A DNA stretch of 64,000 nt from PVC group bacterium (GTDB taxonomy: Bacteria; Auribacterota; Erginobacteria; Erginobacterales; Erginobacteraceae), in assembly GCA_040773245.1 (NCBI GenBank), contig JAXGWO010000003.1, forward strand, positions 6,629 to 70,628. The letters run 5' to 3'. Positions 1 to 42,024 of this stretch are shown here, piece after piece. The notes below the pieces were generated by a model. It saw only the letters and a list, made by a program, of their open reading frames with translations. It searched no databases and had not been told where the DNA came from. The translations under genes and the position numbers were made by a program. The stretch's first letter is position 1; every line of letters starts with the position of its first letter.

Positions 1-5
1 TGTAG

Positions 6-3000
6 ATGACCGAAGCTGCAAATGGGATTCCGCTGCCTCCATCGGACATTCGCAAACTGCGAGAGTGCCAACGACTGGCACTGCAGAAGATCGCATCTTG
101 GCATGGACCGAAGGCGCACGAGACCTTTCTTGCTTGTATGCCGACGGGGACCGGTAAAACGGGCGTCATTGCCCTTAGCGGGTTGTATTTCGCCAAGAAG
201 GATGTGCTGATTGTCACGCCTTGGGACAACCTTCGAACCCAGATGGTAGATGCTCTCGAAGCAAAATTCTGGGAGAACTCAGGAATCACCAAGCCCGAAG
301 GATTCCGAGCAAAGGCCTTCTCCGGCAAAGACCTCGCTGACGAGTTCAAGAAGATAAAACCAGACACGCCGCGAACGTTCTGGGTTACGACGTTCCAAGG
401 CCTCTGGACGACCAGCAAAAGCAAGGAAACCTTCTCTGAACTGCGATCACGTCTCGACCTGGTCGTAATCGATGAAGGACACTACGAACCCGCTATGTGG
501 TGGGGGCACGCCGCCAAAGAGCTCAAGACTCCTACAATCCTGTTTACCGCGACGCCCTACCGCAATGATCTGAAGTACTTCCGCATTCGGGAAAAGGATG
601 TGTCGCACTATAAATACAAGGATGCCGTAACTGAAGATGTCATTCGGCGCGTTGCGCCGACGCCACTCGGAGAAGCTGGAGGGTCCACTGAAGAAATTGC
701 GGCTGCCATCGCCGAGAAATGGAGTAGCGCCAAGAAGCGCACCTTGGCGAACCCGCATCCCAAGATGATTGTTTGCTGCCGCAATTTCCAAGCGGTAAAG
801 GCGTACACCCTCCAACTGGCGAAGCTTGACCTTCCGGTTATCGGCATTCACATCCGCGCGACTAAGAAGCATCTGTCGGCCAAGCAGCTGAAGCTCTTCA
901 GAAGCAAAGTACCGAAAGACCCTTCGGATGAGTCAGCAGAGATATGGGTTCACGAGAAGATGCTCACCGAGGGACTCGACCATCCGCCCTTCTGTTCGCT
1001 CGCAATCACCTACAATATGAGAAATGACCGCAAGTTGATTCAGCAAATCGGCAGGGTTGTGCGGCGAGCTAATGATGATCGGCATAACAACGCCGTTGTT
1101 TACTCGGTTGGCGACGCCTGCGTCGATGCCAGTTGGGAATCGTTTCAGGATTTCGAGGATGACTTTCGTGTGGTCACCACCGAGTACTACAGAGACTTCA
1201 TTGACAACCACCTGAGCAATCAACCTGCGGTGGAGTACTTCGGCAAGCGATTCAGGCGACAACTTGTACCCAAAGAGCTTTCCGCAGAGGTGGCGGGGCG
1301 CGAACTGCTTTCTCTTCCGAGCGTCATAGCGCGTCGCATTGGTGACAACTTTGATATCGACAAGTTCGTCTACGACGTAACCGATAATATCCAACTGCAA
1401 GAGGATTTCGTTGCTCTCGGCCCGATCAGGGACTCGCCGGTGTTATCGCCAGAGGACACTGCGCCCGTGAAGGGAGCGGTGTGGTTATATTGTAGGTTTT
1501 CCAACTCGCGTGCGTTACTTGCGCATTCTGCTTATGAGGTGAAGCTCTCGGCTCTTTGTGTTGTCCTGATCAATCCCTTTCTGTTTGTTTCCGATACGGA
1601 TGCGTTTGTGCCCGCGGAATCTCTTGAGAAACACACCTTCCCATTGCGTCTATCTGACCTGCGCCGAGCGTTCGCAAGTGGGTACCTGCCCACGCAAGTG
1701 CAACTGAAGAACTCCCTACCACACCAAAGCGTGGTACGTGGGACGACACGGTCAGGCAAGAACCTTGCGGAGGTACCCAACTCGCTCACCGAATCAAAGT
1801 ACATCTGTAGTTCGATTCGCGGGAGAAACCCGACCGAAGGGCGTAGGTATGTAGGCTTCACTACTGGACGTCTAAGCGATGATCGAAATGGTATGCGGCG
1901 CTACGAAATGTGCTTCACTGACTTAATCAGGTGGTGTGAAGAGGTTGCTAGGGTGCTGCGGACCTCTGCTGCCACTCACACCTTCTTCCTGCGATTCGCA
2001 CGCCTTGTAGACCCACCTGCGGCGATTGAGCCACACTATGGTTTCTTGGACTTCTGGTCTGGTGCCTTCACGCTCGTGGATCAGGACGGCAACACCAGGG
2101 AACCGATGGATGCCGTGTTTCAGTTTATTCCTGAGGATGCCGATGGAGACGATAAGACGACCAAGGCTTACAGGTTCCACATCCGCGGTGAACTCGACGG
2201 CAAGGAGGAAACAGCGGAGTTGAGAACCTTCTGGCGGGATGGACGATTTCACTTCAAAGCGGTCGAAACCAACGGCCTGGTCATCCGAGAGGCCATAACA
2301 AGCTCTAGCGGTGAGCAAGAATCTACCAGGGACGTTGAGATTGCCTCCTTCTGCAGCCGGAAGCAAGGCGACCTGTTCATTTCACTTGCCTCAAGTAACG
2401 TGATCTTCAATAGCGGAAGCTTCTTCGAGGTCGATCCTACGAGCAATTATTCAGACCTTGGCGGCATGTTCATCGGTTGCGATGAACTCAATCGGGAAGG
2501 ACTTTCCGAGAAGAACCCCAAAGGCAAGAAAAGGATGAAGAGCTGGTGCAAGCAGTCAATCTTCGGAATTGCCAGTTCAGACTCCTTTTTAGCCCGAGAG
2601 TTCGGTGGCAAGCCGGATCTGATTGTGTGTGACGACGGCTCCGACGAGATTGCCGACTTCGTCCTCGTCCAGTTCGATCCACCGAAGTTCGTGCTCGTCC
2701 ACTGCAAGTCTAAACCGCGTAAGGACGACGACAAGGAGCTGCGCGCTGTCTGCGAGCTCCAAGAGGTGGTGTCACAGGCATCAAAGAACCTGGTGTATAT
2801 GTCTGGGCGAAGTCAGATTCCGCCCCACATTGACGAGTGGACGAAGACCAAGAACGTGTACGGTTTCCAGGTGCCGCGGCTACTGCGCAAGGTTGGCACG
2901 AAGCTCTCGGGAACAGCTCTCTGGAATCATATCAGCGACAATGTCCTGCTCAGCAGAAACACAGAGAAGGAAGTGTGGATCATAGTCGGGGGCGCACTCA

Positions 3001-3149
3001 CAAAGTCATGGATCGACCGCGAACTTGCGAAGTGCAAACGAGCGCAGTCGAACCTGGCGTGTCTGTTTCATATGGTTGACGGCCTGAGCGCCTCTTGTAC
3101 GGAAGCCAACGCCAGGCTTAAGGTATTCTGCAACTCCGGAGATAGCTGA
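6..3149 (+). CDS. SF2 (ResIII/DEAD-like) helicase fused to a C-terminal Mrr-like PD-(D/E)xK-type nuclease-like domain; 1047 aa
   Basis: Complete SF2 motif set in the N-terminal ~360 aa: motif I MPTGTGKTG (nt ~139-165), Ia IVTPWDNL, II VVIDEGHY (DExH, nt ~463-486), III TATPYRN, VI QQIGRVVRR. C-terminal region has CDDGSDEIADFVLV ... VLVHCKSK (nt ~2614-2715), resembling the Mrr_cat DGxxD ... QCK core. Lower GC than downstream host genes. Stop overlaps next start (TGATG). Confidence 0.6.
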   Translation: MTEAANGIPLPPSDIRKLRECQRLALQKIASWHGPKAHETFLACMPTGTGKTGVIALSGLYFAKKDVLIVTPWDNLRTQMVDALEAKFWENSGITKPEGFRAKAFSGKDLADEFKKIKPDTPRTFWVTTFQGLWTTSKSKETFSELRSRLDLVVIDEGHYEPAMWWGHAAKELKTPTILFTATPYRNDLKYFRIREKDVSHYKYKDAVTEDVIRRVAPTPLGEAGGSTEEIAAAIAEKWSSAKKRTLANPHPKMIVCCRNFQAVKAYTLQLAKLDLPVIGIHIRATKKHLSAKQLKLFRSKVPKDPSDESAEIWVHEKMLTEGLDHPPFCSLAITYNMRNDRKLIQQIGRVVRRANDDRHNNAVVYSVGDACVDASWESFQDFEDDFRVVTTEYYRDFIDNHLSNQPAVEYFGKRFRRQLVPKELSAEVAGRELLSLPSVIARRIGDNFDIDKFVYDVTDNIQLQEDFVALGPIRDSPVLSPEDTAPVKGAVWLYCRFSNSRALLAHSAYEVKLSALCVVLINPFLFVSDTDAFVPAESLEKHTFPLRLSDLRRAFASGYLPTQVQLKNSLPHQSVVRGTTRSGKNLAEVPNSLTESKYICSSIRGRNPTEGRRYVGFTTGRLSDDRNGMRRYEMCFTDLIRWCEEVARVLRTSAATHTFFLRFARLVDPPAAIEPHYGFLDFWSGAFTLVDQDGNTREPMDAVFQFIPEDADGDDKTTKAYRFHIRGELDGKEETAELRTFWRDGRFHFKAVETNGLVIREAITSSSGEQESTRDVEIASFCSRKQGDLFISLASSNVIFNSGSFFEVDPTSNYSDLGGMFIGCDELNREGLSEKNPKGKKRMKSWCKQSIFGIASSDSFLAREFGGKPDLIVCDDGSDEIADFVLVQFDPPKFVLVHCKSKPRKDDDKELRAVCELQEVVSQASKNLVYMSGRSQIPPHIDEWTKTKNVYGFQVPRLLRKVGTKLSGTALWNHISDNVLLSRNTEKEVWIIVGGALTKSWIDRELAKCKRAQSNLACLFHMVDGLSASCTEANARLKVFCNSGDS

Positions 3150-4282
3150 TGGCTCGATCGAGCAAACTAAGGGTGATGATCTCGAGCAGATGTAATGACG
3201 TGTTTCCTCACGGCAGCGGCTCAGGAAGGACACTCTCGGATATCCGCCGTGATCTGAAGAAAGACATCGAAGCCGAGAAGGTACTTGGTAAGAAGACCTT
3301 TGATGTGTGGATCAATGAGGAGTCTCCGCCAAAGGGTGGCACCTGGGATAGCTGGGACACGTGCATTAAGGCTGCAAAAGATTGCGACATACTCCTGGTT
3401 CTGACGAATGGCAATGCTGGATGGGCTGGCGCGGCAGGAGATATCGGAATATGCCACGCGGAATTGTCGACAGGGCTTTCGTCCGCTCCTGGGAAGGTGT
3501 GGCTGATTTCTTTGGGGGACATCCCGTGTCCAGCCACTGCGGAAGGGAATCGCAACAAACGATTCCAAAATTTCGTGAACACCCAGAGCCTCTTCCGTGG
3601 AGGAGTCGTCAAGACAGAGGCTGACCTCAAGAATCGTGTAAAGGAGGCCCTGCAAAATGCTGTCGTTGACCTCGTGCAGAAGGGCGTTGCCGAGGCGAGC
3701 CGCGGGAAGTTCCACAGCGGCGCAGCGCTCGACTGGGATCGCCTAGATTTCGAAAATCGGCGGAGCAAGATGAAGTCGATAGTCCGCGATACCCTTCAGG
3801 GGCGATTAGGCACTAAGTCAGATGGGGATCATGAGGTTGTGAGTATTGGAGGAAAGGAAATCCTGCTTGTTTCCGATGCTATCCCTGCCGCCATGTCGAT
3901 ATCGGCAGCGCGGGAAAAGGTTGGACAGCCATTTCTTCATGACCACCTGTTAGTCGCTTCACTCAAGGGGGCTCGCGGAGGACCTGTTCACATCATTGCC
4001 TGTCACAAGGGCGTGACTGAGGCGCAAGCGCTTCGAATGCTTGGCTTCCCAGATGCAACCGTTGTGAACACGCCATTTGGAATCTATCTTGCGGACGGCA
4101 TACAGCGCATCCAGCTTGTGTTGATCTCCGGGTGCAGAGATGAGTCGACCACACGACATGGCATCCAAAGGTTCTTCGATTGGCTCCAGCAGACAGGCGA
4201 GGATAGACTGCTTGCACAAAGAGCTGTGTCACGAGCGAAGATTGTGGCCGTCATCTCAAAGGAGTTAGCGGTCGCCAAATGA
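3149..4282 (+). CDS. Hypothetical protein with DUF4062-like N-terminal domain (VMISSRCNDVF ... DIRRDLKKDIE); 377 aa
   Basis: ATG overlaps upstream stop by 1 nt (translational coupling). N-terminal pattern hISSxxxD ... DLKxxxE recalls the DUF4062 domain found at N-termini of many defence-island proteins. Remainder has no motif I can name. Confidence 0.45.
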   Translation: MARSSKLRVMISSRCNDVFPHGSGSGRTLSDIRRDLKKDIEAEKVLGKKTFDVWINEESPPKGGTWDSWDTCIKAAKDCDILLVLTNGNAGWAGAAGDIGICHAELSTGLSSAPGKVWLISLGDIPCPATAEGNRNKRFQNFVNTQSLFRGGVVKTEADLKNRVKEALQNAVVDLVQKGVAEASRGKFHSGAALDWDRLDFENRRSKMKSIVRDTLQGRLGTKSDGDHEVVSIGGKEILLVSDAIPAAMSISAAREKVGQPFLHDHLLVASLKGARGGPVHIIACHKGVTEAQALRMLGFPDATVVNTPFGIYLADGIQRIQLVLISGCRDESTTRHGIQRFFDWLQQTGEDRLLAQRAVSRAKIVAVISKELAVAK

Positions 4283-4291
4283 GGGCGGCGT

Positions 4292-4513
4292 ATGAAACAC
4301 CTCACTCAAACAGACCACGTATGGTCGCAGTTGGGTGACAATGCACTACTAAAGAATGCTTGGCCCCGGCTTTTTGTCGAAGAAATGGAATATGCAGGAG
4401 CAATTGCGCGAACAACAGCATACAGCGGACGGCGCTTCGCGCCGCCGCTGATGCTGAGCGTTCGGCAAAAAGAAATAGGAATCACCTATCGCAAATCGTC
4501 AATAGGAGATTAG
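4292..4513 (+). CDS. Small hypothetical ORF (73 aa) in the 232-nt gap between the DUF4062-like and HerA-like genes
   Basis: ORF exactly fills the intergenic gap and has a weak GAGGG upstream. No recognisable motif. May simply be a spacer or internal promoter region. Confidence 0.15.
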
Positions 4514-4514
4514 G

Positions 4515-6656
4515 ATGACTGACATCGTATCGAATCTGGCCGGAAGGTTAAGCGAACCGGAGTTGAGCGAGCCCCTGCAAGCGGCCAGCCGGGCGCTGAC
4601 AGCCCTAGTTGAGGACACCGCCTACGTCGGCGAAGTCTACTCGCTCGGATACGACGAAGCCCTTGTCCAGATACACGACTTCCACCGCCAACGGGTCGGC
4701 GGCATTCCTGCGCTCTCCTTCTTGATCGCTACCCGTGTCGGCACTGGCGCCTTGGCAGACGTGCGACAGGAGGACGCCTCCATCGTGCTCCTACGTGTTC
4801 TTGATAAAGCCGACCTACCCAATGCGGACGAAGCCCTGCGCGTCCGAGTCGAAACGGCACAGCGGGTAAGCGGTGAAGTAACTCGGCACTGGGACGACCG
4901 GACCGTTATGGACCCGACGACGCACAATCTGCTCAGCTACGCTGGCGTCCGATGCCGAGTGCTGGGAACCTATTATATGGTCAACGCCGGCTCCGACAAC
5001 GCCCCCGTGTTCCGCCTCTTCTTCGGCTCGGACCTCAGTAACTACTACCCCAACCGTGGCCTGAAGGTCTTCAAGCCGCGCGGCAGCGTGCTGGAGGACA
5101 TCGTCAACTTCCGTGACCCCCGGCTGCCTGTTGCCGCACACGACGGCGATGTCTCCATCGGACAGGTTCGCTACGCTTCGAGCCACCGGCCCTTCCAAGG
5201 CATCGACGGTGTGCCAGTGCAGATCACGCCGACGGACCTTCTCGGCCAGAAGACCGCACTCTTCGGGATGACACGTACCGGCAAGTCGAACACTACGAAG
5301 ATCATTCTCAAGTCCATCTTCGCCCTCAGGTGGGGCCACAACCCGATTCGTATCGGCCAGATCGTCTTCGACCCGAACGGCGAGTATGCAAACGAGAACG
5401 AGCAGGACTCCGGAGGCAAAGGACTCAACGCCGAAGCAATTAAGAACGTCTGGAAGTGCGGCCCGGCCGCTCAGCACCAGCGATTGCAGGCGGATGTCAT
5501 TACCTACGGCATCATGGCACACCCAAACGATCCCCACCGGAGGCTGATGCTGCTGAACTTCTACCTCGACGCCAATCTCCAGATCGGCAAGGAGATCATC
5601 AACGATGCGCTGTCGGACCAGACCTCCACCTACCTAAGCAACTTCCGGAACGTCACGTTTGACCCGCCCGACGCGAATGATCGTTCGGCCGTGACCAGAT
5701 ACAACCGTCGCGTTCTCGCCTACCGAGCGTTGCTATTCAAAGCCGGGCTGCAAGTGCCAAGCAGCCTGAGGCCAAACACCCGCAACCTGTTCAATGCGAA
5801 TCTGTTGGCGACCCTGCATACGGACGCACAGAATGGTACTGGCAAGTCGCCCGCCGACTACGGCGTCTGCGCAACCATTCTCGCCAAGCAAACGCCGACG
5901 TGGGCTGAGCTTGCCCAAGCGTTTGAGATACTCCGCGACTACATCGCCGATAGTGGCTCCGGCTGGGGTGCGTTCAACGCGGCTTACGTTCAGACAAGCA
6001 GTTCTGGCTCATGGGCAGACGACGACCTCAAGAAGATTCTGGAGATGTTCGCCTATCCCAACGGCTCCCGCCTGATCGGGCGAGTGAAGGAGCAGCACAC
6101 ACCGGACACAAGCTCCGACTATGCCGCTGACATCTACGAACACCTCAAGCAAGGCCGGCTGGTAATTGTCGATCAGTCGAGCGGCAATCCCGAAATCAAC
6201 AAGGCGGCGGCGGATCGGGTGATGCGGCTAATCTTCGAAGGGCATCAGCAGCAGTTCCGCACGGCACAGACACCGCCCGAGGTGCTGGTGTATGTCGAGG
6301 AGGCCCACAATATCCTACCGTCCTCGCGGGAGCTTGACTTCCAGGACATCTGGGTCCGCTCCGCGAAGGAAGGGGCGAAGTATCACATCGGCTTAGTCTA
6401 CGCGACGCAGGAGGTGAGTTCGATCCAGCAGAACATCCTGCGAAACACGGTCAACTGGTTCATCGGCCATCTAAATAACACCGACGAGACACGCGAAATC
6501 CGCAAGTTCTACGACTTCGCCGACTTCGAGGGTAGCATTCTCCGTGCCCAGGACAAGGGCTTCGTCCGTGTGAAGACACTATCAAACCCGTATGTCATCC
6601 CGGTGCAGGTGGACCGCTTCCTTATCGAAGACACCTCGAACCCTCAGGGGGCGTGA
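4515..6656 (+). CDS. HerA/FtsK-like (DUF87-type) P-loop ATPase; 713 aa
   Basis: Strong SD (AGGAG, 9 nt upstream of ATG). Walker [15 protein letters not shown] (nt ~5261-5300). Walker B with HerA-typical hhhhDEAH-like [14 protein letters not shown]-terminal region consistent with a HAS-barrel-like segment. Size typical of HerA-family ATPases. Confidence 0.55.
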
Positions 6657-6657
6657 C

Positions 6658-8022
6658 GTGCCATACGACGGTGAATACGCGACATACCGCCCTCTGCATC
6701 GGATCTCCGAGTGCCAAAGGGTGACGAGCCTTCTTGCCCGATCCAAGCTCTTGGAGGTAGCACGGGCCACCTACGCCCCGAAGCCCGTCGAAGCTCCTCC
6801 GCAGGCGCCAGCCTTGCCGCGGTTCATACTCGCGATAGACGGCAGCTACGCTGAAGTGGACGTGAAGAACGGCTATCCGGGCGCCAAGGTCGGCTACTGC
6901 ACTGCGGCGAGTGTGCTCCTTGACCTACACCTCATCGGCGAACTGGATGAAGAGCGTCCGGTTGATCCCGTCGAGTTCCGCAAGACAGAGCAAGCCGCAA
7001 GCGTCGACGCCGCGCTGCCGGGCAGCAACGTGGTCACGCGAAGGCAGAACTCCGCGCGGGCGTCGTTCCGCGAGGAACTCTACGACCTCTTCACCGACAT
7101 CGTCGTTGACGAAGACGACCGTATGAACTTGCTCTCGACCTACGAAGCACTGCTGGTGCTGAAACCGACGGCCAATCCTCAGAGTTGCCCATACAAGGAG
7201 TCGCACGGTTGCACGGCGGCATTCGCGGTTGGCTCCGGTTGCACGATGTGTCCGACCTGCGGTCGTCCCGTATACTCCACCGACGCCCTTCGCATCCATG
7301 AGCGGTTCAGGGACATCGGAACAAACGGCGAGGCGTTCGGCCTGGTAATGCAGGTTATGGAACGGCTGCTCGCAATCCATTTCCTCCGATGCTTTGAGCG
7401 CCGCAATCTGCTGCAACGTCTCCCGTCGCTCGCATTCTTCATCGACGGTCCATTGGCGGCGTTCGGCCCGCCGGCTTGGCTGAGCGCCGCTATCAGCCGG
7501 GAACTCAAACGACTCAATCAGAAGGTGCAGGCCGCAACCGGCCAGGACCTCTTGATCTTAGGCATCGAAAAGACCGGGGTTTTCGTGCAGCACTTCGAAG
7601 AAATCGACCAAACGGAAACGCCGGGACAGCAGCTTTTCTCCGCGCGGCAATACATACTCCTGACGGACGGCTATATCAAGGATCGTATCCTGCACTCCGA
7701 CAGCCACAAGCGGTACGGGGAAGATACCTATTTCGGCCGAAAGTTCTTCTACAAGGCGCAGAGTGGGGCTCGGATCGTCGCCAGCATTCCGTTTCTATCC
7801 GATGCTCAAGACACCATAGCCAATGACGACATCTCTCTCTATCCACAGTTCGCTGCCGTCTGCACGCTCCTGGATCGCGTGGTGTCGTCACGTTACGCGA
7901 ACTCGGTGTCGCCGTTGATTGCGGCCAATGCCCAGGCCGCTATCCCGCTGCAACTCGGATCGAAGGTGTTGACGCAACTGGCGAGGGCGCTTCTAGGAAC
8001 TGCTGAGAATGGCAGGAAATAG
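6658..8022 (+). CDS. NurA-like nuclease-domain protein with inserted Cys4 zinc ribbon; ~455 aa from GTG 6658 (ORF track alternative start ATG 6592 would overlap upstream gene by 65 nt)
   Basis: GTG at 6658 lies 1 nt after the HerA-like stop. N-terminal RFILAIDGSYAEVD (nt ~6824-6860) matches NurA motif I (catalytic Asp in IDGS). A second FFIDGP occurs later. CPYKESHGC ... CTMCPTCG cluster at nt ~7190-7265. Gene order ATPase then nuclease mirrors HerA-NurA operons. Confidence 0.4.
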   Translation: MPYDGEYATYRPLHRISECQRVTSLLARSKLLEVARATYAPKPVEAPPQAPALPRFILAIDGSYAEVDVKNGYPGAKVGYCTAASVLLDLHLIGELDEERPVDPVEFRKTEQAASVDAALPGSNVVTRRQNSARASFREELYDLFTDIVVDEDDRMNLLSTYEALLVLKPTANPQSCPYKESHGCTAAFAVGSGCTMCPTCGRPVYSTDALRIHERFRDIGTNGEAFGLVMQVMERLLAIHFLRCFERRNLLQRLPSLAFFIDGPLAAFGPPAWLSAAISRELKRLNQKVQAATGQDLLILGIEKTGVFVQHFEEIDQTETPGQQLFSARQYILLTDGYIKDRILHSDSHKRYGEDTYFGRKFFYKAQSGARIVASIPFLSDAQDTIANDDISLYPQFAAVCTLLDRVVSSRYANSVSPLIAANAQAAIPLQLGSKVLTQLARALLGTAENGRK

Positions 8023-9121
8023 CAAAACCTTCGGCACCGCGGCGAAGAGGTGGGAGGGAATCGGCCCATACTACGCCATGTTCCCGATTCGATTTGCCGA
8101 CGCGGTTATCAAAGAGCATACGGCAGCGGGTGACACAGTGCTTGACCCGTTCGCCGGCCGCGGGACCGCGATCTTCAGCGCATCGGCACTGGGGAGGCGC
8201 GGGTTCGGCGTTGAGATAAGTCCTGTCGGATGGGTCTACGCGAAGGCCAAGCTGGGCCCCGCGCCTCCGGAGCAAGTCGAGCAACGGCTACAGGAGATTG
8301 CTAATGCGGGCAGAGTCTATGCCGAGCAAGCCCGGTCTCTGCCGGAGTTCTTCAAGAAGTGCTTCTCTCCGTCTGTTCGGCGCTTCCTGCTCGCCGCGCG
8401 AGATGGACTCGACTGGCGTAGATGCACTTGCGACAGGACACTTATGGCGATCCTACTCGTCTACCTGCACGGGAAGGAAGGCCAGGCACTATCGAACCAG
8501 ATGAGGCAAACAAAGGCTATGTCACCGCAGTACGCCATCCAATGGTGGATTGAACACGGATCGAATCCGCCTGACTTAGATGCGGTGGAGTTTCTGCAGC
8601 AGCGAATCCGCTGGCGATACGCGAAGGGCGTGATTGAGGCGGATGACAGCCGGATTTTCCTGGGCAACAGCATCACCGTCCTTCCGCAATTGGCGAAGCG
8701 AATGCGCGAAGAGAAAGCCCCAAAAGCGAAGCTCTTGCTCACATCACCGCCGTACTTTGGCGTTACGAATTACCATTACGACCAGTGGCTTAGGCTCTGG
8801 TTGCTAGGATTTGAGACCGACGCCTACGTGGCCCGAGGGCCATACCAAGGCCGGTTCACCCATCCTGTCCGCTATCGAAGCTTGCTCAATAAGGTCTTCT
8901 GCCGCGCGGCGAAACTGATCGCGGACAACGCAGTGGTCTACGTCCGCACTAGCAAGGACCCGTTTACCAAGAAGGCGACGCTTGATACCATGCTCAAAGC
9001 CTTCCCGAAGAAGCGGCTGATCGAGCGATGCCAGCCATTCCGAAAACCGACGCAGACATTCCTTTTCGGCGACAACACGCCGAAGGCTGGCGAGGTAGAC
9101 TTAATCTTGTTGCCATCATGA
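8009..9121 (+). CDS. DNA methyltransferase, N6-adenine/N4-cytosine family (N6_N4_Mtase-like); 370 aa
   Basis: AdoMet motif I VLDPFAGRGTAIFSA (nt ~8140-8180) and catalytic motif IV LLTSPPYFGV (nt ~8744-8770; SPPY typical of N4C/N6A MTases). Order I ... IV with ~200 aa between. Start overlaps the NurA-like gene end by 14 nt. Confidence 0.75.
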   Translation: MAGNSKTFGTAAKRWEGIGPYYAMFPIRFADAVIKEHTAAGDTVLDPFAGRGTAIFSASALGRRGFGVEISPVGWVYAKAKLGPAPPEQVEQRLQEIANAGRVYAEQARSLPEFFKKCFSPSVRRFLLAARDGLDWRRCTCDRTLMAILLVYLHGKEGQALSNQMRQTKAMSPQYAIQWWIEHGSNPPDLDAVEFLQQRIRWRYAKGVIEADDSRIFLGNSITVLPQLAKRMREEKAPKAKLLLTSPPYFGVTNYHYDQWLRLWLLGFETDAYVARGPYQGRFTHPVRYRSLLNKVFCRAAKLIADNAVVYVRTSKDPFTKKATLDTMLKAFPKKRLIERCQPFRKPTQTFLFGDNTPKAGEVDLILLPS

Positions 9122-9221
9122 GAAACGAAACACAGTATGGGTTCCTAATGGAAGCAGCGCAATAGCCGATTGTGGCGGGCGATCCACTTTGCGGTCAGCC
9201 TCTGAAACGGGCTAGGAGGAA

Positions 9222-10151
9222 ATGACTATGCCGAACTTGGAAATCGCGGCTAGAAATTTCATAGGAACCTACACCTCACTAAACGGCACCACTATTCAGC
9301 CTATCAGTCGATTCGCCCTTCTCCGGTCCATGATCACTGTCGGGTATAAGTGCGAGGCCGACGCGATCGGGTATGGCTGGCGGAGTATCGGTTGGCATCT
9401 TTCGACCTGCTTTCTCACCATCGCTACGACCGTATCGCGGAACGGCAACTTGGTCGTATCTAAGCTTTTCCACTCCCTGGATTCATCCGAAAAGAATATG
9501 GTCAGCTACCGCTTGGGGATGGGTCTAACCAAGTACACTGCGGAAGTCAAACTCAACGTCCCGTGGCTCGTACACCTGGACAAGATATTCAATGCTGGTG
9601 GACTAACCTTGCAGGACGGGACTCTCGAACGTGGAGACCTTGCTGGGCAAGACGGCGCTGGGGTATGGCATGTGGTAGAGGCAAAGGGCAGATCCAATCC
9701 GCCATCCGGCAAGCTCCTCACCAAAGCCAAGAATCAGGTCTCGCGCGTTACCTCCATTAATGGACAGCCCCCGGCCACCAAGTCGGCGTCTATCATCCAT
9801 TTGTACAGAGACCCCATCAGAGCCGAATTGGTTGACCCACAGAAGCCGGAGAAGAAGCCACTCAAGATCCAGATATCGCTCGGTAAGTATTTCCCAACAT
9901 ACTATGCCATTCTCCTTCAACTCCTCGATCTCTCCGAAATACAGTCTCACGTGGTTGGCGATGTACCCTTTAGCCTGACTCCCTTTGATTTTGGTGGCAA
10001 TGTGATCGGAATCGGCCTTGCTGACGCTGTTCGGAGGAATCCCACGGAAGCCCAGAGATTAACAAAGGAAATTCTGGCGATGGACCTGCGGCAGCGGGAG
10101 AATCCAAAGAAAAGCATTGGCCTTGATGGGGTGATTGTGGCGCAAATGTGA
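9222..10151 (+). CDS. Hypothetical protein, possible PD-(D/E)xK restriction-endonuclease-like partner of the methyltransferase (start more likely ATG 9228, which has AGGAGG 8 nt upstream)
   Basis: Segment RGDLAGQDGAGVWHVVEAKGRS (nt ~9640-9700) fits a D-x(n)-ExK core. Sits immediately downstream of a DNA MTase. No other recognisable motif, so the functional call is weak. Confidence 0.3.
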   Translation: MTMPNLEIAARNFIGTYTSLNGTTIQPISRFALLRSMITVGYKCEADAIGYGWRSIGWHLSTCFLTIATTVSRNGNLVVSKLFHSLDSSEKNMVSYRLGMGLTKYTAEVKLNVPWLVHLDKIFNAGGLTLQDGTLERGDLAGQDGAGVWHVVEAKGRSNPPSGKLLTKAKNQVSRVTSINGQPPATKSASIIHLYRDPIRAELVDPQKPEKKPLKIQISLGKYFPTYYAILLQLLDLSEIQSHVVGDVPFSLTPFDFGGNVIGIGLADAVRRNPTEAQRLTKEILAMDLRQRENPKKSIGLDGVIVAQM

Positions 10152-10992
10152 CGGCAGCCCCAACAAGAGCATCCAGCCCTACAAACGGGCCGCGCGGATG
10201 CGGCTCTTTTTAAGGCTGAAGCTCGCCGTTGATCTGAATAATAAGATGCGGCACCAAAAGAATATCATTGCCTTTAATGGCAAAGCACGCGGTCCGTCCG
10301 AAGAGAAGGCGCGAGTGGCGTTTATCAATAAAGCCTCGGGGTTATTATTCATCGCAGCAAAGGAGGCCGCAAAACGTGCACTAAGAGCATCAGGCACACT
10401 CGGGGAGCAAAATGAGGCAATGACCGCTGTGGTTCTGTGCGGAGTAGTCGCAGAGGCCAGCATCAATGAAATCAGCGCGTGGTATGAATCTCATCATCTT
10501 CATCCCCAGTTCAGCGTTTCGCATAATCTTCCATATGGCTTTGACCGCTTGGAACTCCGTGTCAAGTGGTCATTGTTCCCGATGATTGTCAGGCAACGTA
10601 GTTTCAACACTGGTGCCGAACTATGGCAGAGCTTCAATGCTCTAGTTGAACTCCGCAACTTCATTGTTCACCTTCGAGATCGCCCCCTATCAAAGTCAGT
10701 CAATGGATTACTAAGATCAAAAAAACTGATAGAGGAGCACCATAGTTTTCTTGGCTTTCCGGTTGCACAGTGGGCCTGCGAAACCGTTGCTTCAATGTTC
10801 GAAGAGCTTACCAAGTTGGTGGCACCACCTCAGGAATGGATACCAATCGTCTGGCATTGGACCCCAACTCATTCGTTCCCTTATGGCTTGTCGACACCAG
10901 GTGATTCGTTTGTTGAAACAGAAAGCAAGAAGCTACCAACAAGACGATCTAGGGGAAGGATCACTCGCAGTGGGTTCGCCACCCGTGAATGA
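10135..10992 (+). CDS. Hypothetical protein (285 aa; true start uncertain, internal ATGs at ~10197 and ~10246)
   Basis: Last ORF of the low-GC plus-strand array. Codon usage like the island genes. No motif recognised. Confidence 0.3.
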   Translation: MWRKCDGSPNKSIQPYKRAARMRLFLRLKLAVDLNNKMRHQKNIIAFNGKARGPSEEKARVAFINKASGLLFIAAKEAAKRALRASGTLGEQNEAMTAVVLCGVVAEASINEISAWYESHHLHPQFSVSHNLPYGFDRLELRVKWSLFPMIVRQRSFNTGAELWQSFNALVELRNFIVHLRDRPLSKSVNGLLRSKKLIEEHHSFLGFPVAQWACETVASMFEELTKLVAPPQEWIPIVWHWTPTHSFPYGLSTPGDSFVETESKKLPTRRSRGRITRSGFATRE

Positions 10993-11146
10993 TAGCGTTG
11001 GCCAACCAGAACAGGAGGCAAACTATAGGAAAAGCAAATGACAAGAAGGTTGTTCGCAATGCACTATACATCCTTAGAACGAACAGTTATTGGCCGAGGC
11101 AGAAAACATAAATCGAAAACTGGGGGCGAAGACGTTACTGAATCGC

Positions 11147-12553
11147 TTACCACCAGCCCGGATAGGGAGGGACAAGGAAGAGGCGGAGGTGGAGGTCGCG
11201 GACTACTCTCAGGAGGAACTTGATAGCCCGCCAGTTTAGGGCCTTGAGGTTTCGGCGGAGGAAATAGAGGATGGTTGCGGGGTCGCGCTGGATTATCCGC
11301 ACTATCTTTTTGGAGGCGGCGGTTAGGTCGGAGTAGAAACTGGTCCAGGGGAGCTTGATCCAGGGCCAGGGGCCCTGCAGGTTCCAGTCGCCCTGCAGGG
11401 TTCCGTTCTTTTTGGCCTCCTCGTAGACCTCGGTTCCGGGGAGGGGATAGAGGACGGGGACGAAGCCTACTATCGGTTTGGCCTGGCGGAGGAAGGCGAT
11501 GGTTTCTTCGACGGTCTCGGGGGTCTCGCCCGGGAAGCCGACCATTATCTCGCCGTAGCAGCCAATTCCGGCTTCCTTGGTCAACCGCGCGGCTTCCAGG
11601 TTTTGAGCCACCGTGGTCCCCTTCCCCATCGCCTCCAGCACCCGGTCCGACCCGGACTCGAAGCCATAGACGATCTGCTCCACCCCTGCCCTCTTCAATT
11701 TCTCCAGCAGTTCCCGATCGACGGCGTCAACCCGGGAGCGGATCTTAAGCCGAAAATGGTATCCGCCACGGACCAGTCCATCGGCGATCTCCAGGCAGCG
11801 GGAACGGGCGGCGGTGAAGGCGTCGTCCTGGATGTGGACCGACCTCACCCCGCGACGCCGCAGTTCCTCGAACTCCACCATCAGGTTCTCGACGGACCGG
11901 ACGCGGCACTTCTTCTCCACCTGGAAACAGAATCGGCAGTTATAAGGACAGCCCCGGGAGCTGATCATCATATCCAGTTTTCCCCGGGCGGCCAGGTTCC
12001 AGTACAGGCCAGCTTGGTAGTAGCGGTCGAGGTAGCTTCGGTCGAGCGGGGGCAGGAGGTCGAGGTCCTCGATCCGGTCGGGGGGGTTGGAGGCGATCCC
12101 GCCTTCCGTCCGGTGAACCAGGCCGGGGACTTCCCGGGCGGGGATCTTTCCTTCCAGCATCTTGACCAGGGCGGGGAAGGAGCGGTCGGCCTCCCCCCGG
12201 ATGGCGTAGTCGAGCTGGGTAATCTTCTCCAGGGTCCACTCCGGCCGGGCGGTGGGGTGGGGACCGCCGACGACCATCGCCGCGTCGGGGAGGTAGGTCT
12301 TCATCCGCCGGGTGATCCGGTCGAAGGGGATCAGGTAGGGGGTGTAGCAGGTCAGTCCGACCAAGTCCGGGCGGTAGTCCCGGATCTCGGCGAAGAAGGG
12401 GTCCATCCGGCGGAACTCGCCGGAGTAGTCGAAGATCCTCGCCTCCTCCCCCGTTTCCCCGAGCTGGGTGGCCAGCCGGCAGAGGTGGAGGGGGGGGTAG
12501 TAGCCGGTGGACCTACCCTGGAAGGCGTCGTAAGCAACAAGGGCGATCTTCAT
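11147..12553 (-). CDS. B12-binding domain radical SAM protein; 468 aa
   Basis: N-terminal cobalamin-binding-like region (MKIALVAYDAF ... DLVGLTCYTP). Radical SAM CxxxCxxC: SSRGCPYNCRFCF. High-GC host-type codon usage begins here. Confidence 0.8.
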   Translation of the reverse strand: MKIALVAYDAFQGRSTGYYPPLHLCRLATQLGETGEEARIFDYSGEFRRMDPFFAEIRDYRPDLVGLTCYTPYLIPFDRITRRMKTYLPDAAMVVGGPHPTARPEWTLEKITQLDYAIRGEADRSFPALVKMLEGKIPAREVPGLVHRTEGGIASNPPDRIEDLDLLPPLDRSYLDRYYQAGLYWNLAARGKLDMMISSRGCPYNCRFCFQVEKKCRVRSVENLMVEFEELRRRGVRSVHIQDDAFTAARSRCLEIADGLVRGGYHFRLKIRSRVDAVDRELLEKLKRAGVEQIVYGFESGSDRVLEAMGKGTTVAQNLEAARLTKEAGIGCYGEIMVGFPGETPETVEETIAFLRQAKPIVGFVPVLYPLPGTEVYEEAKKNGTLQGDWNLQGPWPWIKLPWTSFYSDLTAASKKIVRIIQRDPATILYFLRRNLKALNWRAIKFLLRVVRDLHLRLFLVPPYPGWW

Positions 12554-12601
12554 TGCGCTGGCAGACTTTCTGATGCCCCTCCCCCTCCCTCGACAGGCTC
12601 G

Positions 12602-12634
12602 GGACAGGTTGCCCCCTCCCCACGGGGAGGGGGT
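12602..12634 (+). terminator. Intrinsic-terminator-like hairpin: 9-10 bp GC stem (CCCCCTCCCC / GGGGAGGGG) followed by TGC + T8 on the plus strand
   Basis: Read directly. Perfect stem with 3-4 nt loop then TTTTTTTT at 12627-12634. Lies between two minus-strand genes, so the U-tract is on the strand with no obvious upstream gene. On the minus strand it reads A-tract then hairpin. Confidence 0.4.
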
Positions 12635-12655
12635 GCTTTTTTTTAGGGGCGGGAT

Positions 12656-13885
12656 TTAGCTTGTGAACTTTCGCTCCCCGGGGATAAACCCCGGGGGGGC
12701 GGCCGGGTCAATTTTGGCTGGACGGCGGGCGGGTCGGGCGAAGAAGAGGCCGAGGAGGGCGACCGCGCCGGCCAGGAAATAAATCAGCCGGTAGCCGCCG
12801 AACTGGGCGGCGGCGCCCCAGATCAGGGACCCGGCCCCGATCCCGATATCGAAACTGCTGGTGAAGATCCCGGTCGCCGTCCCCCGGGAACAGGAGTGGA
12901 CCCGCTCGATCACCAGGGCGTTGAGGACCGGGTAGAGGAAGCAGTGCCCCAGCCCGCAGAGAAAGGCGGAGAGGATGAAGACCGGCCAGGAGCCGCTGAA
13001 CGCGATCAGGGCGATCCCGGCCCCGAAGACGACCAGGGCGGGGCCGAGCACCCGGACCCGGCCCAGCCGGTCGGGGAGGTGCCCGGCGGTGAAGCGGAAG
13101 AAGATGGTGGTCCCGGAGTAGACGGCCGAGAAGATCCCGATCGAGACAATCGCCTGAAGCCGGGAGTACTCGGCGAAGAAGGAGACGAAGGAAGCCCGGC
13201 TGACCGAGAAGAGGAGCGTCACCAGGAGGACGGCCGCCACCCCGTTCCCCATCAGGTCGCGGTAGGAGGGGAAGAGGGGTCCGCATTCGGCGACCGGCCG
13301 GCTCTCCCGAAGCCGGAAGGAGAGGGCGAGCGACAGGAACGAGAGGAGGGCGGCGAGTATGAAGACCCCCTGGAAACCGGCCCGGATCCCGGCAAAGAGT
13401 CTCATAATCATCTCCCCGGACCCGGGTCCGACGGCAAGGGCGACCATCCCGGCGGTCCCGAAGATGCCCAGAGACTGGGCGAGCCGGGCCGGGGGGCTGA
13501 TGTCGGCGGTGATGGTCCAGACCGCGGTGATGTTCCCCCCGAGGGCGACCCCCTGGAGAAACCGCAGGAAGACCAGCCAGGGTCCGGCGGTCTTCACGGT
13601 CAGGAAAGCGAGGATGGCGGCGGTATTGAGCAGGGAAGAGAAGATCAGCACCTTCCTTCGCCCGCCGCGGTCGAGGGAACGGCCCCAGAAGAACCGGCTG
13701 AGCACCGAACCGATCGGGGCCGCCCCCATCGCCAGGCCGATCTGCAGCGCCCCCCCGCCCAGTTCGTCGATCAGGATCGGGAGGACCAGGAAGATGGTCT
13801 GGGTGGTCATCACCAGAAAGAAGATCAGGGTGACCAGGAAGAAGGCCGGGGTGAAGAGCGGCGGGTTGGAAGTTCGGGCGGACAT
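12656..13885 (-). CDS. MFS transporter; 409 aa
   Basis: ~12 predicted hydrophobic helices. MFS-like loop motif GRSLDRGGRRKVL between TM2 and TM3. Confidence 0.8.
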   Translation of the reverse strand: MSARTSNPPLFTPAFFLVTLIFFLVMTTQTIFLVLPILIDELGGGALQIGLAMGAAPIGSVLSRFFWGRSLDRGGRRKVLIFSSLLNTAAILAFLTVKTAGPWLVFLRFLQGVALGGNITAVWTITADISPPARLAQSLGIFGTAGMVALAVGPGSGEMIMRLFAGIRAGFQGVFILAALLSFLSLALSFRLRESRPVAECGPLFPSYRDLMGNGVAAVLLVTLLFSVSRASFVSFFAEYSRLQAIVSIGIFSAVYSGTTIFFRFTAGHLPDRLGRVRVLGPALVVFGAGIALIAFSGSWPVFILSAFLCGLGHCFLYPVLNALVIERVHSCSRGTATGIFTSSFDIGIGAGSLIWGAAAQFGGYRLIYFLAGAVALLGLFFARPARRPAKIDPAAPPGFIPGERKFTS

Positions 13886-18774: not shown

Positions 18775-18961
18775 AATTTAATCGCTATCCGCCTTGGCCC
18801 GCCGGAGCGGGCTACGGCGGAGAAAGTCGGGATCGGGATCGGGATCGGCTTTTCCGGGCTTCGATACCGATAGCGATCCCGATAGCGATAGCGAGCAGCT
18901 GACAATTATCTGGAATTCCCGTTATGATAGCGGTATATCTGATAAATCAAAGGAAAAAACG

Positions 18962-19765
18962 ATGAACCAGAATACCGCCAAGACCCGGTCCTACCTCGAA
19001 CTCCTGGTTGTTCTCCTGGCGGTGATGCTGATCCTTCCCGTCATTGAAGTCAAAAACGATCTCCTCAACAACATCATCCTCTCCCTCTTCTTCCTCCTCT
19101 TCCTCCTGGCCGGGCTGAAGGTGGCGATCACCAAGGGGGTGGCGCCCCACCGTCCCCTCTACAAGTGGACGATCAAGGGAACCATCCTGGTCTCCTTCTC
19201 CGCGGATGTCGCCCAGTCCGTGATCTACACCCTGAGGGGACAGAGAAAGGACTTCGCCTTCGACCTGGAGCCTCTCTCCCAGCTCACCGGGGGGACCTTC
19301 TGGCTCCAGCTGCTCAACCTGGCCGCCGTCGTCGGCTACGCCTTTCTCACCGTCTTCCTGATCATTATGATCATCCGGGACCTCTTCTCCGGGACCCGGG
19401 TCCGGATCAACAACATCTTCGGGGCGATCGTGGCTTACCTCCTCCTGGGGATCTTCTGGTCTTTTCTTTACGCCTCCCTGGAGCTGGTCGAACCCGGGGC
19501 GATCATCCGCGCGGACGGGACCGCCATCCTCAGTTACGCCGAAGCCAGCTACTACAGTTTTGTCACCCTCTGCACGGTCGGCTACGGCGACATCGTTCCC
19601 CGATCGCACCTGGCGATGGTCTTCTCCAACCTGGAGTCGGTCACCGGCCAGCTCTACCTGGCGATCCTGGTCGCCCGCCTGGTCTCGCTCTACACCGCCG
19701 CCGGCACCGGGAAGAACCCGGAAGTCGAAGCGGGTGAAGAGCACGCCGATGGGGAAGAAGCCTGA
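18962..19765 (+). CDS. Two-TM potassium channel family protein (Ion_trans_2-like); ~267 aa from ATG 18962 (ORF track starts earlier at 18794 in repeat-derived sequence)
   Basis: K+ selectivity filter TLCTVGYGDIVP (nt ~19565-19600) preceded by a pore helix and flanked by TM helices. Upstream part of the track ORF is low-complexity translation of GATCGG repeats. Confidence 0.7.
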   Translation: MNQNTAKTRSYLELLVVLLAVMLILPVIEVKNDLLNNIILSLFFLLFLLAGLKVAITKGVAPHRPLYKWTIKGTILVSFSADVAQSVIYTLRGQRKDFAFDLEPLSQLTGGTFWLQLLNLAAVVGYAFLTVFLIIMIIRDLFSGTRVRINNIFGAIVAYLLLGIFWSFLYASLELVEPGAIIRADGTAILSYAEASYYSFVTLCTVGYGDIVPRSHLAMVFSNLESVTGQLYLAILVARLVSLYTAAGTGKNPEVEAGEEHADGEEA

Positions 19766-19905
19766 TTACGGCCCGGCCCGATCGATTCCGATCCCGATCC
19801 CGATAGCGATAGCGATTAACCCCACCGTTGTTTAATCCATAAATTCTTGAAAAAAAGTTTGCCCCCGGCGGGGAGAAGTGGTATACCTACCGGTAGGTAT
19901 ATTAA

Positions 19906-28010: not shown

Positions 28011-28027
28011 TGCCTCTAACCTCTTGG

Positions 28028-41950: not shown

Positions 41951-42024
41951 GGCGGAGTAGCTCAGCTGGTTAGAGCAGCGGAATCATAATCCGCGTGTCG
42001 GGGGTTCGAGTCCCTCCTCCGCTA
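41951..42024 (+). tRNA. tRNA with anticodon CAT (elongator tRNA-Met or tRNA-Ile2/lysidine type); 74 nt, CCA not encoded
   Basis: Cloverleaf read by eye. Acceptor GGCGGAG/CTCCGCT (one G-U). D-arm GCTC-AGCTGGTTA-GAGC. Anticodon stem GCGGA/TCCGC with loop ATCATAA. Variable loop GTGTC. T-arm GGGGG-TTCGAGT-CCCTC. Discriminator A. Anticodon stem lacks the three G:C pairs of an initiator tRNA. Confidence 0.85.

Follow-up and report, generated by a model that had tools for sequence, protein, structure and literature searches.

The closest described counterparts of the locus reported here are the restriction-modification (R-M) system TdpABC and other operons with a HerA-type ATPase and, for the DNA segment that carries it, integrase-borne islands that insert into the 3' ends of genes. 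PMC12914056 cites Tdp, which occurs in thermophiles (An et al., Nat Chem Biol 2025), as a third R-M system based on phosphorothioation, with tdpC as the only gene needed for the mark. The present analysis concerns a 64,000-nt stretch of contig JAXGWO010000003.1 (hereafter the window, whose numbering is used for all positions; labels of the type L001–L107 denote the loci and contigs compared with it) and in particular its first 11,146 nt, which contain a three-gene cassette for a HerA-type ATPase, a NurA-type nuclease and a DNA methyltransferase (MTase). Overall, we are rather confident that this segment is the right-hand part of an acquired island seated in the 3' end of a B12-binding radical-SAM gene, that its cargo is a mosaic of conflict-type genes and that it includes a Tdp-like cassette predicted to act through methylation.

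Comparison of the cassette with the described systems revealed partial agreement in each case. Like TdpABC, it combines a HerA-family hexameric ATPase and a NurA-fold nuclease with one adjacent DNA-modifying enzyme (PDB 8wet, 8wfd and 8y1k), but the modifying enzyme is an N6_N4-family MTase (Dam-class in distant relatives), and neither TdpC nor a phosphorothioation gene is present in the island; as TdpC is missing, the cassette is not Tdp itself. In Tdp, the mark is reported to block translocation and cleavage by TdpAB on self DNA. The archaeal and Deinococcus HerA-NurA end-resection complex shares the two folds, the adjacent and translationally coupled genes and the retained DGS and Walker motifs, whereas the HerA of the window is ~200 residues longer, its NurA is divergent, an MTase is obligatorily adjacent and the distribution is that of a mobile element; since no mre11 or rad50 gene was linked in 80 loci, the cassette is not an archaeal-type repair operon. 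With Type II/III R-M systems it has in common an MTase with intact motifs that is tightly linked to a nuclease, as well as a compact, mobile organization and a frequent location in defence islands. In contrast to these systems, the nuclease is an ATP-driven HerA-NurA machine and not a PD-(D/E)xK, HNH or PLD endonuclease, and the cassette has no specificity subunit or Res helicase. SIR2-HerA and DUF4297-HerA likewise pair a HerA ATPase with an effector in a compact operon, and the PADLOC HerA models match the window protein; however, the effector here is NurA and not SIR2 or a Cap4-like nuclease, and those systems lack an MTase, so that the cassette belongs to neither. Finally, of the eight-gene methylation-associated defence system MADS (mad1–mad8) only mad8 was matched, partially and by HerA (4.8e-12), and no other mad model matched a protein of the island, which sets the cassette apart from MADS as well.

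The original prediction, made by eye from the letters of the window, was that the first ~11 kb form an island of lower GC content and different codon usage. Quantitative analysis showed that the composition is indeed non-uniform, with a GC content of 0.556 at 1–11146 and of 0.651 at 11147–64000, so that the remainder is less GC-rich than the ~70% first estimated. In 1-kb steps, GC content ranged from 0.505 to 0.599 in all 11 segments up to position 11000 and was mostly 0.60–0.71 past 12000. The difference in codon usage was likewise borne out: the seven large open reading frames (ORFs) of the island had a GC content at third codon positions (GC3) of 0.52–0.76, compared with 0.76–0.95 for the other called genes (Mann-Whitney p = 3e-5; coding frames picked by GC3, and one doubtful ORF abutting the far end of the window excepted). 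Tetranucleotide usage deviation in the three 4-kb segments covering 1–12000 correlated with that of the rest of the window at r = 0.31–0.63 only, as opposed to 0.81–0.94 in all 4-kb segments outside this range. The island itself is a compositional mosaic, with a GC content of 0.54 in its first two large genes (a helicase and a DUF4062-like gene), 0.58–0.60 in the HerA, NurA and MTase genes, 0.49–0.53 in the last two cargo genes and 0.45 in the AT-rich non-coding junction (10993–11146) that leads from the cargo to the stop codon of the radical-SAM gene. At a resolution of 200 nt, GC content was 0.50 at 11001–11200 and climbed to 0.595–0.69 within the radical-SAM gene (11147–12553, minus strand; Pfam B12-binding and Radical_SAM). 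As the GC3 of this gene is host-like (0.85), the composition switches between its stop codon and the last ORF of the island, which is where the predicted boundary, between 10,993 and 11,146, had been drawn.

Synteny placed the boundary at the same position. The three close genomic relatives identified with the radical-SAM protein, namely Candidatus Erginobacter occultus (L005; Auribacterota, PVC group) and two metagenome-assembled genomes (MAGs; L006 and L007), have 74–81% identical radical-SAM proteins and are collinear with the window between ~20.4 kb and 11140–11147 at 75–83% nucleotide identity, with collinearity breaking exactly at the radical-SAM stop codon. Past this codon, mutual identity among the three is 79–85% at host-like GC content, and the genes that follow encode PGM/PMM, in convergent orientation to the radical-SAM gene, and then UvrA, ExbB, ExbD and DnaE; PGM, uvrA, exbB, exbD and dnaE are all absent from the window, and the junction at 10993–11146 is without counterpart in the relatives' PGM–radical-SAM spacer. 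Four more loci (L012–L015), found with the PGM protein, read dnaE-exbD-exbB-uvrA-(sulfatase)-PGM followed by radical-SAM-MFS-TatD-RecJ-M50-pyruvate kinase. Seven related loci thus lack the island at the syntenic position, PGM there directly adjoining the radical-SAM gene, and together with the composition this upholds the reading as a foreign insert; at an eighth, L010, a different gene occupies the site. The target gene itself is intact, orthologous to its relatives over the full length (74–82% nucleotide identity) and identical to them at its C-terminus (...RDLHLRLFLVPPYPGWW). That island DNA had replaced a larger part of the radical-SAM 3' region was also considered and rejected, since the gene resembles its relatives equally well throughout its length. 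The host is an Auribacterota-like bacterium related to Ca. Erginobacter.

Only the right boundary lies inside the window, as had been predicted, and the island continues leftward in independent assemblies. Logan assemblies of runs SRR27544751/53/54/58 and SRR27558887 hold the identical island and reach only 78 nt further to the left, and all four Logan contigs listed for the helicase gene (L001, L002, L106 and L107) share their first base, which precedes the helicase start by 83 nt. Such a common start, whatever the other end of the contig, points to a branch in the assembly graph immediately left of the window, at a repeat or at a junction that varies among strains; the first 24 nt of these contigs, considered as a possible island-end or insertion sequence (IS) repeat, occur nowhere else in the window or the compared loci. 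The reciprocal junction was found on L011, a 3.2-kb contig from Logan run SRR27544762 of the same sequencing series, whose PGM is 80% identical to that of Ca. Erginobacter. It contains, in order, the N-terminus of uvrA, PGM, a spacer that aligns with the PGM–radical-SAM spacer of L006, a 47-nt remnant of the radical-SAM 3' end (CCACCTCTTCGGGCAGAGTGGAACGAGGAAGAGACGGAGGTGGAAGT) and low-GC DNA. The PGM of L011 is 83–84% identical to those of L005 and L006 and 79.5% identical to that of L007, the same pattern as seen for the window's own genes. Alignment of the remnant (L011:1941-1987) with the still functional terminal 16 codons of the radical-SAM gene (11150–11196) gave 35 of 47 identical positions in register (binomial P = 4e-10 for the fixed register), which makes the latter the right copy of a flanking direct repeat, comparable to an attR; the L011 copy is decayed and has lost both stop codon and reading frame. 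Past the remnant, GC content is 0.37–0.59, and the contig encodes a 48-residue ORF, a zinc-ribbon membrane protein and a DUF2007 protein that is cut by the contig end. From this junction structure we concluded that the radical-SAM gene harbours the island in its 3' end and that the island, flanked by a direct repeat, is at least ~12.5 kb long. The earlier statement that no integrase, tRNA gene or direct repeat marks the boundary therefore holds inside the window, but a copy of a direct repeat does exist outside it, beside PGM on L011.

These junctions also bear on the two explanations that would dispense with an insertion. If the first 11 kb stemmed from another organism and had been misjoined during assembly or binning, a window that begins inside the island and assemblies that all break within 80 nt of the same left point, marking a region that is hard to assemble, would be readily understood. 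However, the join between island and radical-SAM gene recurs base for base in Logan contigs from several independent runs (L001, which occurs in 8 samples, L003 and L004), and the separate contig L011 carries the reciprocal junction with PGM, radical-SAM remnant and low-GC DNA; these independent joins and the reciprocal junction render a chimeric assembly very improbable. The opposite scenario, an ancestral segment that was deleted in the relatives and owes its low GC content to local selection, draws on the fact that only about eight related loci at 74–84% nucleotide identity were compared and that an empty-site strain of the same species was not found among them. We judge it very improbable, given that seven relatives at varied distances share the direct adjacency of PGM and radical-SAM gene, that a duplication of the 3' end is what an insertion, and not a deletion, leaves behind, that GC3 and tetranucleotide usage are foreign, and that the cassette proteins are 85–92% identical in five further phyla in unrelated contexts. 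The compositional island is therefore real, horizontally acquired and of defence type.

The island entered the last ~50 nt of the B12-radical-SAM gene, between this gene and the convergent PGM gene. For its acquisition we propose a site-specific recombinase that used an attP equipped with a surrogate 3' end, the mode known from islands that target the 3' ends of tRNA or protein genes. The target gene would thereby have been restored while its old end was displaced to the far side of the island, a classical pattern for elements of this type. As no recombinase gene was detected, the recombinase step is one that we infer; its gene might be located beyond the left edge of the window, where the assembly is missing, or have been lost since. 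Integrase-borne islands in the 3' ends of tRNA, tmRNA or protein genes agree with the present one in their foreign composition, absence in relatives, intact target and displaced partial 3'-end copy at the far side, but here the target is a radical-SAM and not a tRNA gene, an integrase was not seen, and the repeat is short and diverged (35/47). Neither a tRNA gene nor another Rfam element was found near the island, the sole tRNA gene of the window, and its only Rfam match, being tRNA-Met at 41951–42024, so that a tRNA or tmRNA target does not apply.

Several observations weigh against this account of the insertion. L011 and the window are separate contigs, the stretch between them is missing, and the two repeat copies thus lie on different contigs. 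With only 74% identity between these copies, the precise crossover core cannot be named. Screening of the 11.1-kb part in the window with Pfam, NCBIfam, PADLOC and PHROGs returned no integrase, excisionase or transposase, and the upstream sequence on L011 yielded the 47-nt repeat copy but no integrase or other recombinase in its ~1.2 kb of island DNA (Pfam scan only). In addition, L010 carries one extra gene of host-like GC content (L010:1411-2763; 450 residues, weak GDSL-like match) between PGM and the radical-SAM gene, which indicates that this junction also varies by other routes. Exact-pattern scans aimed at joining the two contigs found no match to the helicase 5' end in the JGI metagenomes and none to the 78 nt upstream of the window or to the right end of L011 in IMG/VR, and a full-length version of the truncated DUF2007 protein was absent from the protein collection searched. 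Beyond the 3'-end repeat, the two junctions share no inverted repeats or further similarity, and a promoter and terminator scan gave a signal no better than chance.

The same stretch left of the window is where an alternative identity of the element has to be sought, namely that the segment is one end of a prophage or integrative conjugative element (ICE) with defence genes as accessory load. Related cassettes do occur at (pro)phage ends, in L099 behind tail genes, in L097 beside an integrase and in L101 near an integrase; moreover, assemblies do not reach the left part of the island, and a flanking repeat in a gene 3' end is typical of such elements. Against this, a PHROGs search of the 11.1 kb in the window was negative for genes of phage structure, replication or conjugation (Pfam alone covered the ~1.2 kb of island DNA on L011). 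The junction contigs measure just 3–13 kb, and the gap may be small. We regard a prophage or ICE end as unlikely, if worth keeping in mind, and favour an island with a conflict-gene cargo.

The cassette within this island comprises three plus-strand genes that abut or overlap one another (4515–9121). The first (4515–6656) encodes a HerA-type hexameric ATPase/translocase of 713 residues (Pfam DUF87, PADLOC HerA models), the second (6658–8022, GTG start) a NurA-type nuclease of 454 residues (Pfam NurA, 6e-10) and the third (8009–9121) an N6_N4-family DNA MTase of 370 residues (Pfam N6_N4_Mtase 3.4e-11, PADLOC Type II MTase 1.3e-17). Walker A and Walker B (VYVEEAHN) of HerA are kept across 71 sequences, the NurA motifs AIDGS and GIEKxG (DGS, EK) are conserved, and MTase motif I (DPFAGRGT) and motif IV (TSPPY) are kept across 48 sequences. 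With its motifs intact and its linkage to the nuclease present in every locus, the MTase can be predicted to be active and paired with the nuclease in the manner of an R-M system. Among solved structures, the best relative of HerA was TdpA (8wet, 2.4e-18), while the next HerA followed ~11 orders of magnitude behind at 1.7e-7; the similarity to TdpA is mainly limited to the ATPase core. Several of the HerA chains ranking below TdpA (1.7e-7 or worse) are the HerA subunits of SIR2-HerA and DUF4297-HerA systems. For NurA, which matched no PADLOC model, neither sequence nor profile searches of the PDB returned anything, TdpB being undetectable at this level. An AlphaFold model, in contrast, found TdpB as its best Foldseek match (8wfd_G, E 2e-5, probability 1.0), followed by the NurA proteins of Deinococcus and Sulfolobus. 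The PDB relatives of the MTase include cytosine-N4 methyltransferases.

A scan of the JGI metagenomes with HerA returned 397 candidates, and the best 80 (66–93% identical HerA, contig GC content 0.38–0.71) were retrieved. In all of these 80 loci that are long enough, HerA, NurA and MTase genes occur in the same order and with the same spacing, whereas none of the other island genes was found in any of the 80. Apart from duplicate contigs, no recurrent flanking cluster was detected among them, leaving the MTase as the sole conserved neighbour, and nucleotide homology to the closest loci starts at 4499–4515 and ends at 9114–9141. The flanks comprise housekeeping as well as defence genes (GmrSD, HEPN, HNH, ResIII, EcoRI methylase, BrxC/D, Type ISP, Mrr and PIN): in a 4.8-Mb genome (L102) the cassette stands bare among rubrerythrin and oxidative-stress genes, and on another contig it follows a TerB-BrxC/D-helicase cluster that reads as Shango-like. 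NurA proteins 85–92% identical to that of the window were found in MAGs of five further phyla, i.e. Promineifilum (Chloroflexota), Nitrospiraceae (Nitrospirota), Acidobacteriota, Burkholderiaceae (Pseudomonadota) and Cystobacterineae (Myxococcota), and more distant ones in Alistipes (71%) and Planctomycetales (64%). The IMG/VR phage contig L099 (regions 1718-6055 and 10001-12792) carries HerA and NurA 85% and 81% identical to those of the window directly downstream of neck, major-tail and tape-measure genes, the contig ending inside NurA, and represents a phage vehicle for the cassette. Across 34 loci the GC content of the cassette is on average 5.7 points below that of its flanks, the same offset as in the window, and it tracks flank GC with r = 0.74 and a slope of 0.6. 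No end sequence common to the cassette loci was detected. Judged from these contexts, the cassette is a self-contained unit that moves as a block among genomes, phages and, more distantly, plasmids.

The individual genes of the cassette do not always share their closest relatives, as shown by L103, with HerA 76% but NurA 91% identical to the window, and by L038, with 73% for HerA, 85% for NurA and 79% for the MTase, which points to recombination between cassette variants. As separate observations at single loci, a 68-nt direct repeat (90%) brackets the cassette of L072, 115–182 nt upstream of herA and 274–341 nt downstream of the MTase stop codon, and L065 has a 27-nt inverted pair. Ratios of nonsynonymous to synonymous substitution rates (dN/dS) between the window cassette and four others were 0.04–0.17, mostly <0.10, at dS of ~0.8–2.6; the ratio for the radical-SAM genes of the window and L005 was set aside as a frame artefact. 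Since dN/dS is low at high dS, the similarity across phyla results from strong constraint and not merely from recent spread.

Distribution and selection are also the grounds on which a different function of the cassette has to be weighed, that of a DNA end-resection or repair module or of a selfish addiction module rather than of immunity. HerA-NurA is best known from double-strand-break resection, dN/dS values of 0.04–0.10 are housekeeping-like, the cassette of L102 lies amid oxidative-stress genes, and R-M-like modules can act as addiction modules. On the other hand, a Mre11/Rad50 partner is lacking, the distribution is patchy with flanks that always differ and a GC content below that of the host, the cassette is borne by phages and plasmids, known defence genes are frequent in its flanks, non-homologous DNA methylases have been recruited repeatedly, and among solved structures the Tdp restriction pair is closer than the repair enzymes. 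We therefore consider a repair or addiction function improbable and continue with restriction as the preferred reading.

The recruitment of methylases became apparent from distant HerA-NurA pairs (34–38% identity), which still adjoin a DNA methyltransferase, albeit of another family or in another position. L097, L100 and L101 have an MTase of the D12/Dam class, L098 an N6_N4-like one. A Dam/D12-class MTase lies upstream of the pair in two IMG/VR contigs, one of them with an integrase; in a Vibrio prophage, a Dam-class MTase is located on the opposite strand between HerA-NurA and an excisionase, and the pair adjoins an integrase; and on a Deferribacter megaplasmid (L098) an N6_N4-like MTase is found upstream of an IS-disrupted HerA of 28–43% identity. 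This repeated recruitment of non-homologous methylases argues for a functional coupling of methylation to the nuclease machine. As TdpA and TdpB are the closest solved relatives and a methylase is consistently linked, we propose a Tdp-like mechanism with a methyl mark. The MTase would mark host DNA, possibly with N4-methylcytosine (m4C), as suggested by the SPPY motif and by the cytosine-N4 methyltransferases among its PDB matches. The HerA hexamer would then load on DNA and thread it into NurA, which would degrade DNA devoid of the methyl mark, following the logic of TdpAB with methylation in place of the phosphorothioation by TdpC. From gene content, structural modelling and analogy to Tdp, we infer that the cassette is a methylation-based, Tdp-like restriction system.

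This assignment has to be balanced against a number of contrary points. A putative anti-phage, methylation-sensitive role is deduced here from genes and models; the NurA model, built on 35 homologues, is of medium confidence (predicted local distance difference test (pLDDT) 63, predicted template-modelling score (pTM) 0.69), and its TM-scores against TdpB are low (0.35/0.42). Neither HerA nor NurA was found to contain a domain that reads methyl marks, the ~230-residue N-terminal extension of HerA being the candidate for this role; dN/dS values this low are atypical of defence genes, and on a Nostoc plasmid the distant HerA-NurA pair is accompanied by AbiTii in place of an MTase. It nevertheless appears plausible that the core cassette is a new methylation-based variant of the HerA-NurA, Tdp-like restriction systems. 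More tentatively, and as a serious possibility rather than the expected outcome, HerA-NurA-MTase might constitute an undescribed, widespread class of R-M systems, a methylation counterpart of TdpABC that was built repeatedly with unrelated MTases, processively destroys unmethylated DNA and occurs as a bare cassette in at least 6 phyla, in phages and on plasmids under strong purifying selection. Full-text searches of the open-access literature returned no published description of a HerA-NurA-methylase defence system, which is not proof of novelty; they gave SIR2-HerA, DUF4297-HerA, archaeal HerA-NurA, comparative genomics of Dnd and BREX, and an unrelated ICE hotspot.

Viewed as a compositional island, the segment is an ordinary, well-delimited case of horizontal acquisition, in which the target is a protein-coding gene and not a tRNA gene; it stems from Auribacterota, a candidate phylum that has received little study. 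The cassette outweighs it in interest, having 397 candidate relatives in the JGI metagenomes and a nearly unchanged protein across phyla. If it is a methylation analogue of Tdp, the HerA-NurA resection machine would have been recruited for the discrimination of self and non-self with at least two chemical marks, and its compactness and high conservation would make the cassette a convenient model in which to study how a ring translocase senses DNA modification.

The remaining cargo surrounds the cassette on both sides. The first gene (6–3149, plus strand) encodes a superfamily 2 (SF2) helicase of 1047 residues with a ResIII/DEAD N-terminus (residues 17–186; Pfam ResIII 3.5e-14, DEAD 2e-12) and a PDC-S71-like C-terminal half. 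Residues 508–1043 match the PADLOC model PDC-S71, a single-gene phage-defence candidate, at 1.3e-23; the agreement thus covers the C-terminal 540 residues, whereas the SF2 N-terminus lies outside the matched region. PDC-S71 is a computational candidate for which we know of no tested function. Full-length relatives of the helicase (~25% identical) are single genes on plasmids, e.g. beside Tn7-like genes. Overlapping the helicase stop codon, the next gene (3149–4282, plus strand) encodes a DUF4062-like protein of 377 residues (weak Pfam DUF4062 match, 0.0042; no match in a PDB search), for which a 48% identical, DUF4062-annotated protein was found on a Comamonas plasmid with different neighbours. 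It is followed by a doubtful 73-residue ORF (4292–4513, plus strand) that was called as a gene in the Logan contigs and matched no family.

Downstream of the MTase, after a gap of ~100 nt, a gene for a 307-residue protein (9228–10151, plus strand) shows by eye a possible PD-(D/E)xK-like D...EAK motif; no family or PDB match was obtained (Pfam, NCBIfam, PADLOC), and a single-sequence AlphaFold model was unusable (pLDDT 29.6). Its relatives (28% identity) are located on 110 plasmids, mostly of Agrobacterium and Rhizobium, and in the single plasmid context examined the gene adjoins one for a RES-family toxin. The last cargo gene (10198–10992, plus strand) encodes a 264-residue protein with a HEPN-like Rx4H motif in its translation (ELRNFIVH) and a weak PADLOC RTasHEPN match (0.0086) centred on this motif; nothing else was found for it, PDB search included. 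The helicase, 377-residue, 73-residue, 307-residue and 264-residue genes were considered as parts of the HerA system and rejected, since none of them occurs in the 80 cassette loci. Because the plasmid homologues of the helicase, DUF4062-like and 307-residue proteins have other neighbours, in settings of conflict-type or mobile genes, these genes were treated as independent modules. The island as a whole clusters several defence families (PDC-S71 1.3e-23, HerA 3e-22, Type II MTase 1.3e-17, a weak PADLOC match to HEPN and a DUF4062-like protein), PADLOC v2 recognized no complete named defence system in it, and by its annotations the cargo reads as a mosaic of independent conflict-type modules: the helicase, the DUF4062-like protein, HerA-NurA-MTase and the pair of 307-residue and HEPN-like proteins.

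Within the doubtful ORF upstream of herA, a GC-rich segment of 52 nt (4411–4462) is 94% identical to L028:4207-4258. In L028, the closest relative of the cassette, this segment begins 16 nt past the end of the cassette homology, i.e. downstream of the MTase gene, where the contig ends, and it is better conserved than the cassette itself (94% compared with 87%). It could be the trace of a circular intermediate, of tandem cassettes or of a shared small gene.

Some minor features were observed in the host part of the window. The spacer between the radical-SAM and MFS genes (12554–12707) contains a strong terminator-like hairpin (12610–12635) with a T-run, and three Logan contigs all stop at about position 12701, a second recurrent assembly break. 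Self-comparison of the window revealed a single repeat, a 34-nt direct repeat (91%) at 18861–18894 and 19782–19815, ~0.9 kb apart and bracketing the ORF at 18794–19765; the relatives have similar copies between genes, one of them in the MFS/radical-SAM spacer of L005, which suggests a small family of intergenic repeats dispersed in this lineage. Finally, an element of ~50 nt at 28027–28098 matches, at 83–85%, a site ~1.6–2.2 kb beyond the radical-SAM gene in the three close relatives (L005:13225-13275, L006:11150-11193 and L007:9829-9877). The L005 site lies in the spacer just upstream of a UvrA-like ORF; the element is without an Rfam match and may be a conserved regulatory or RNA element.

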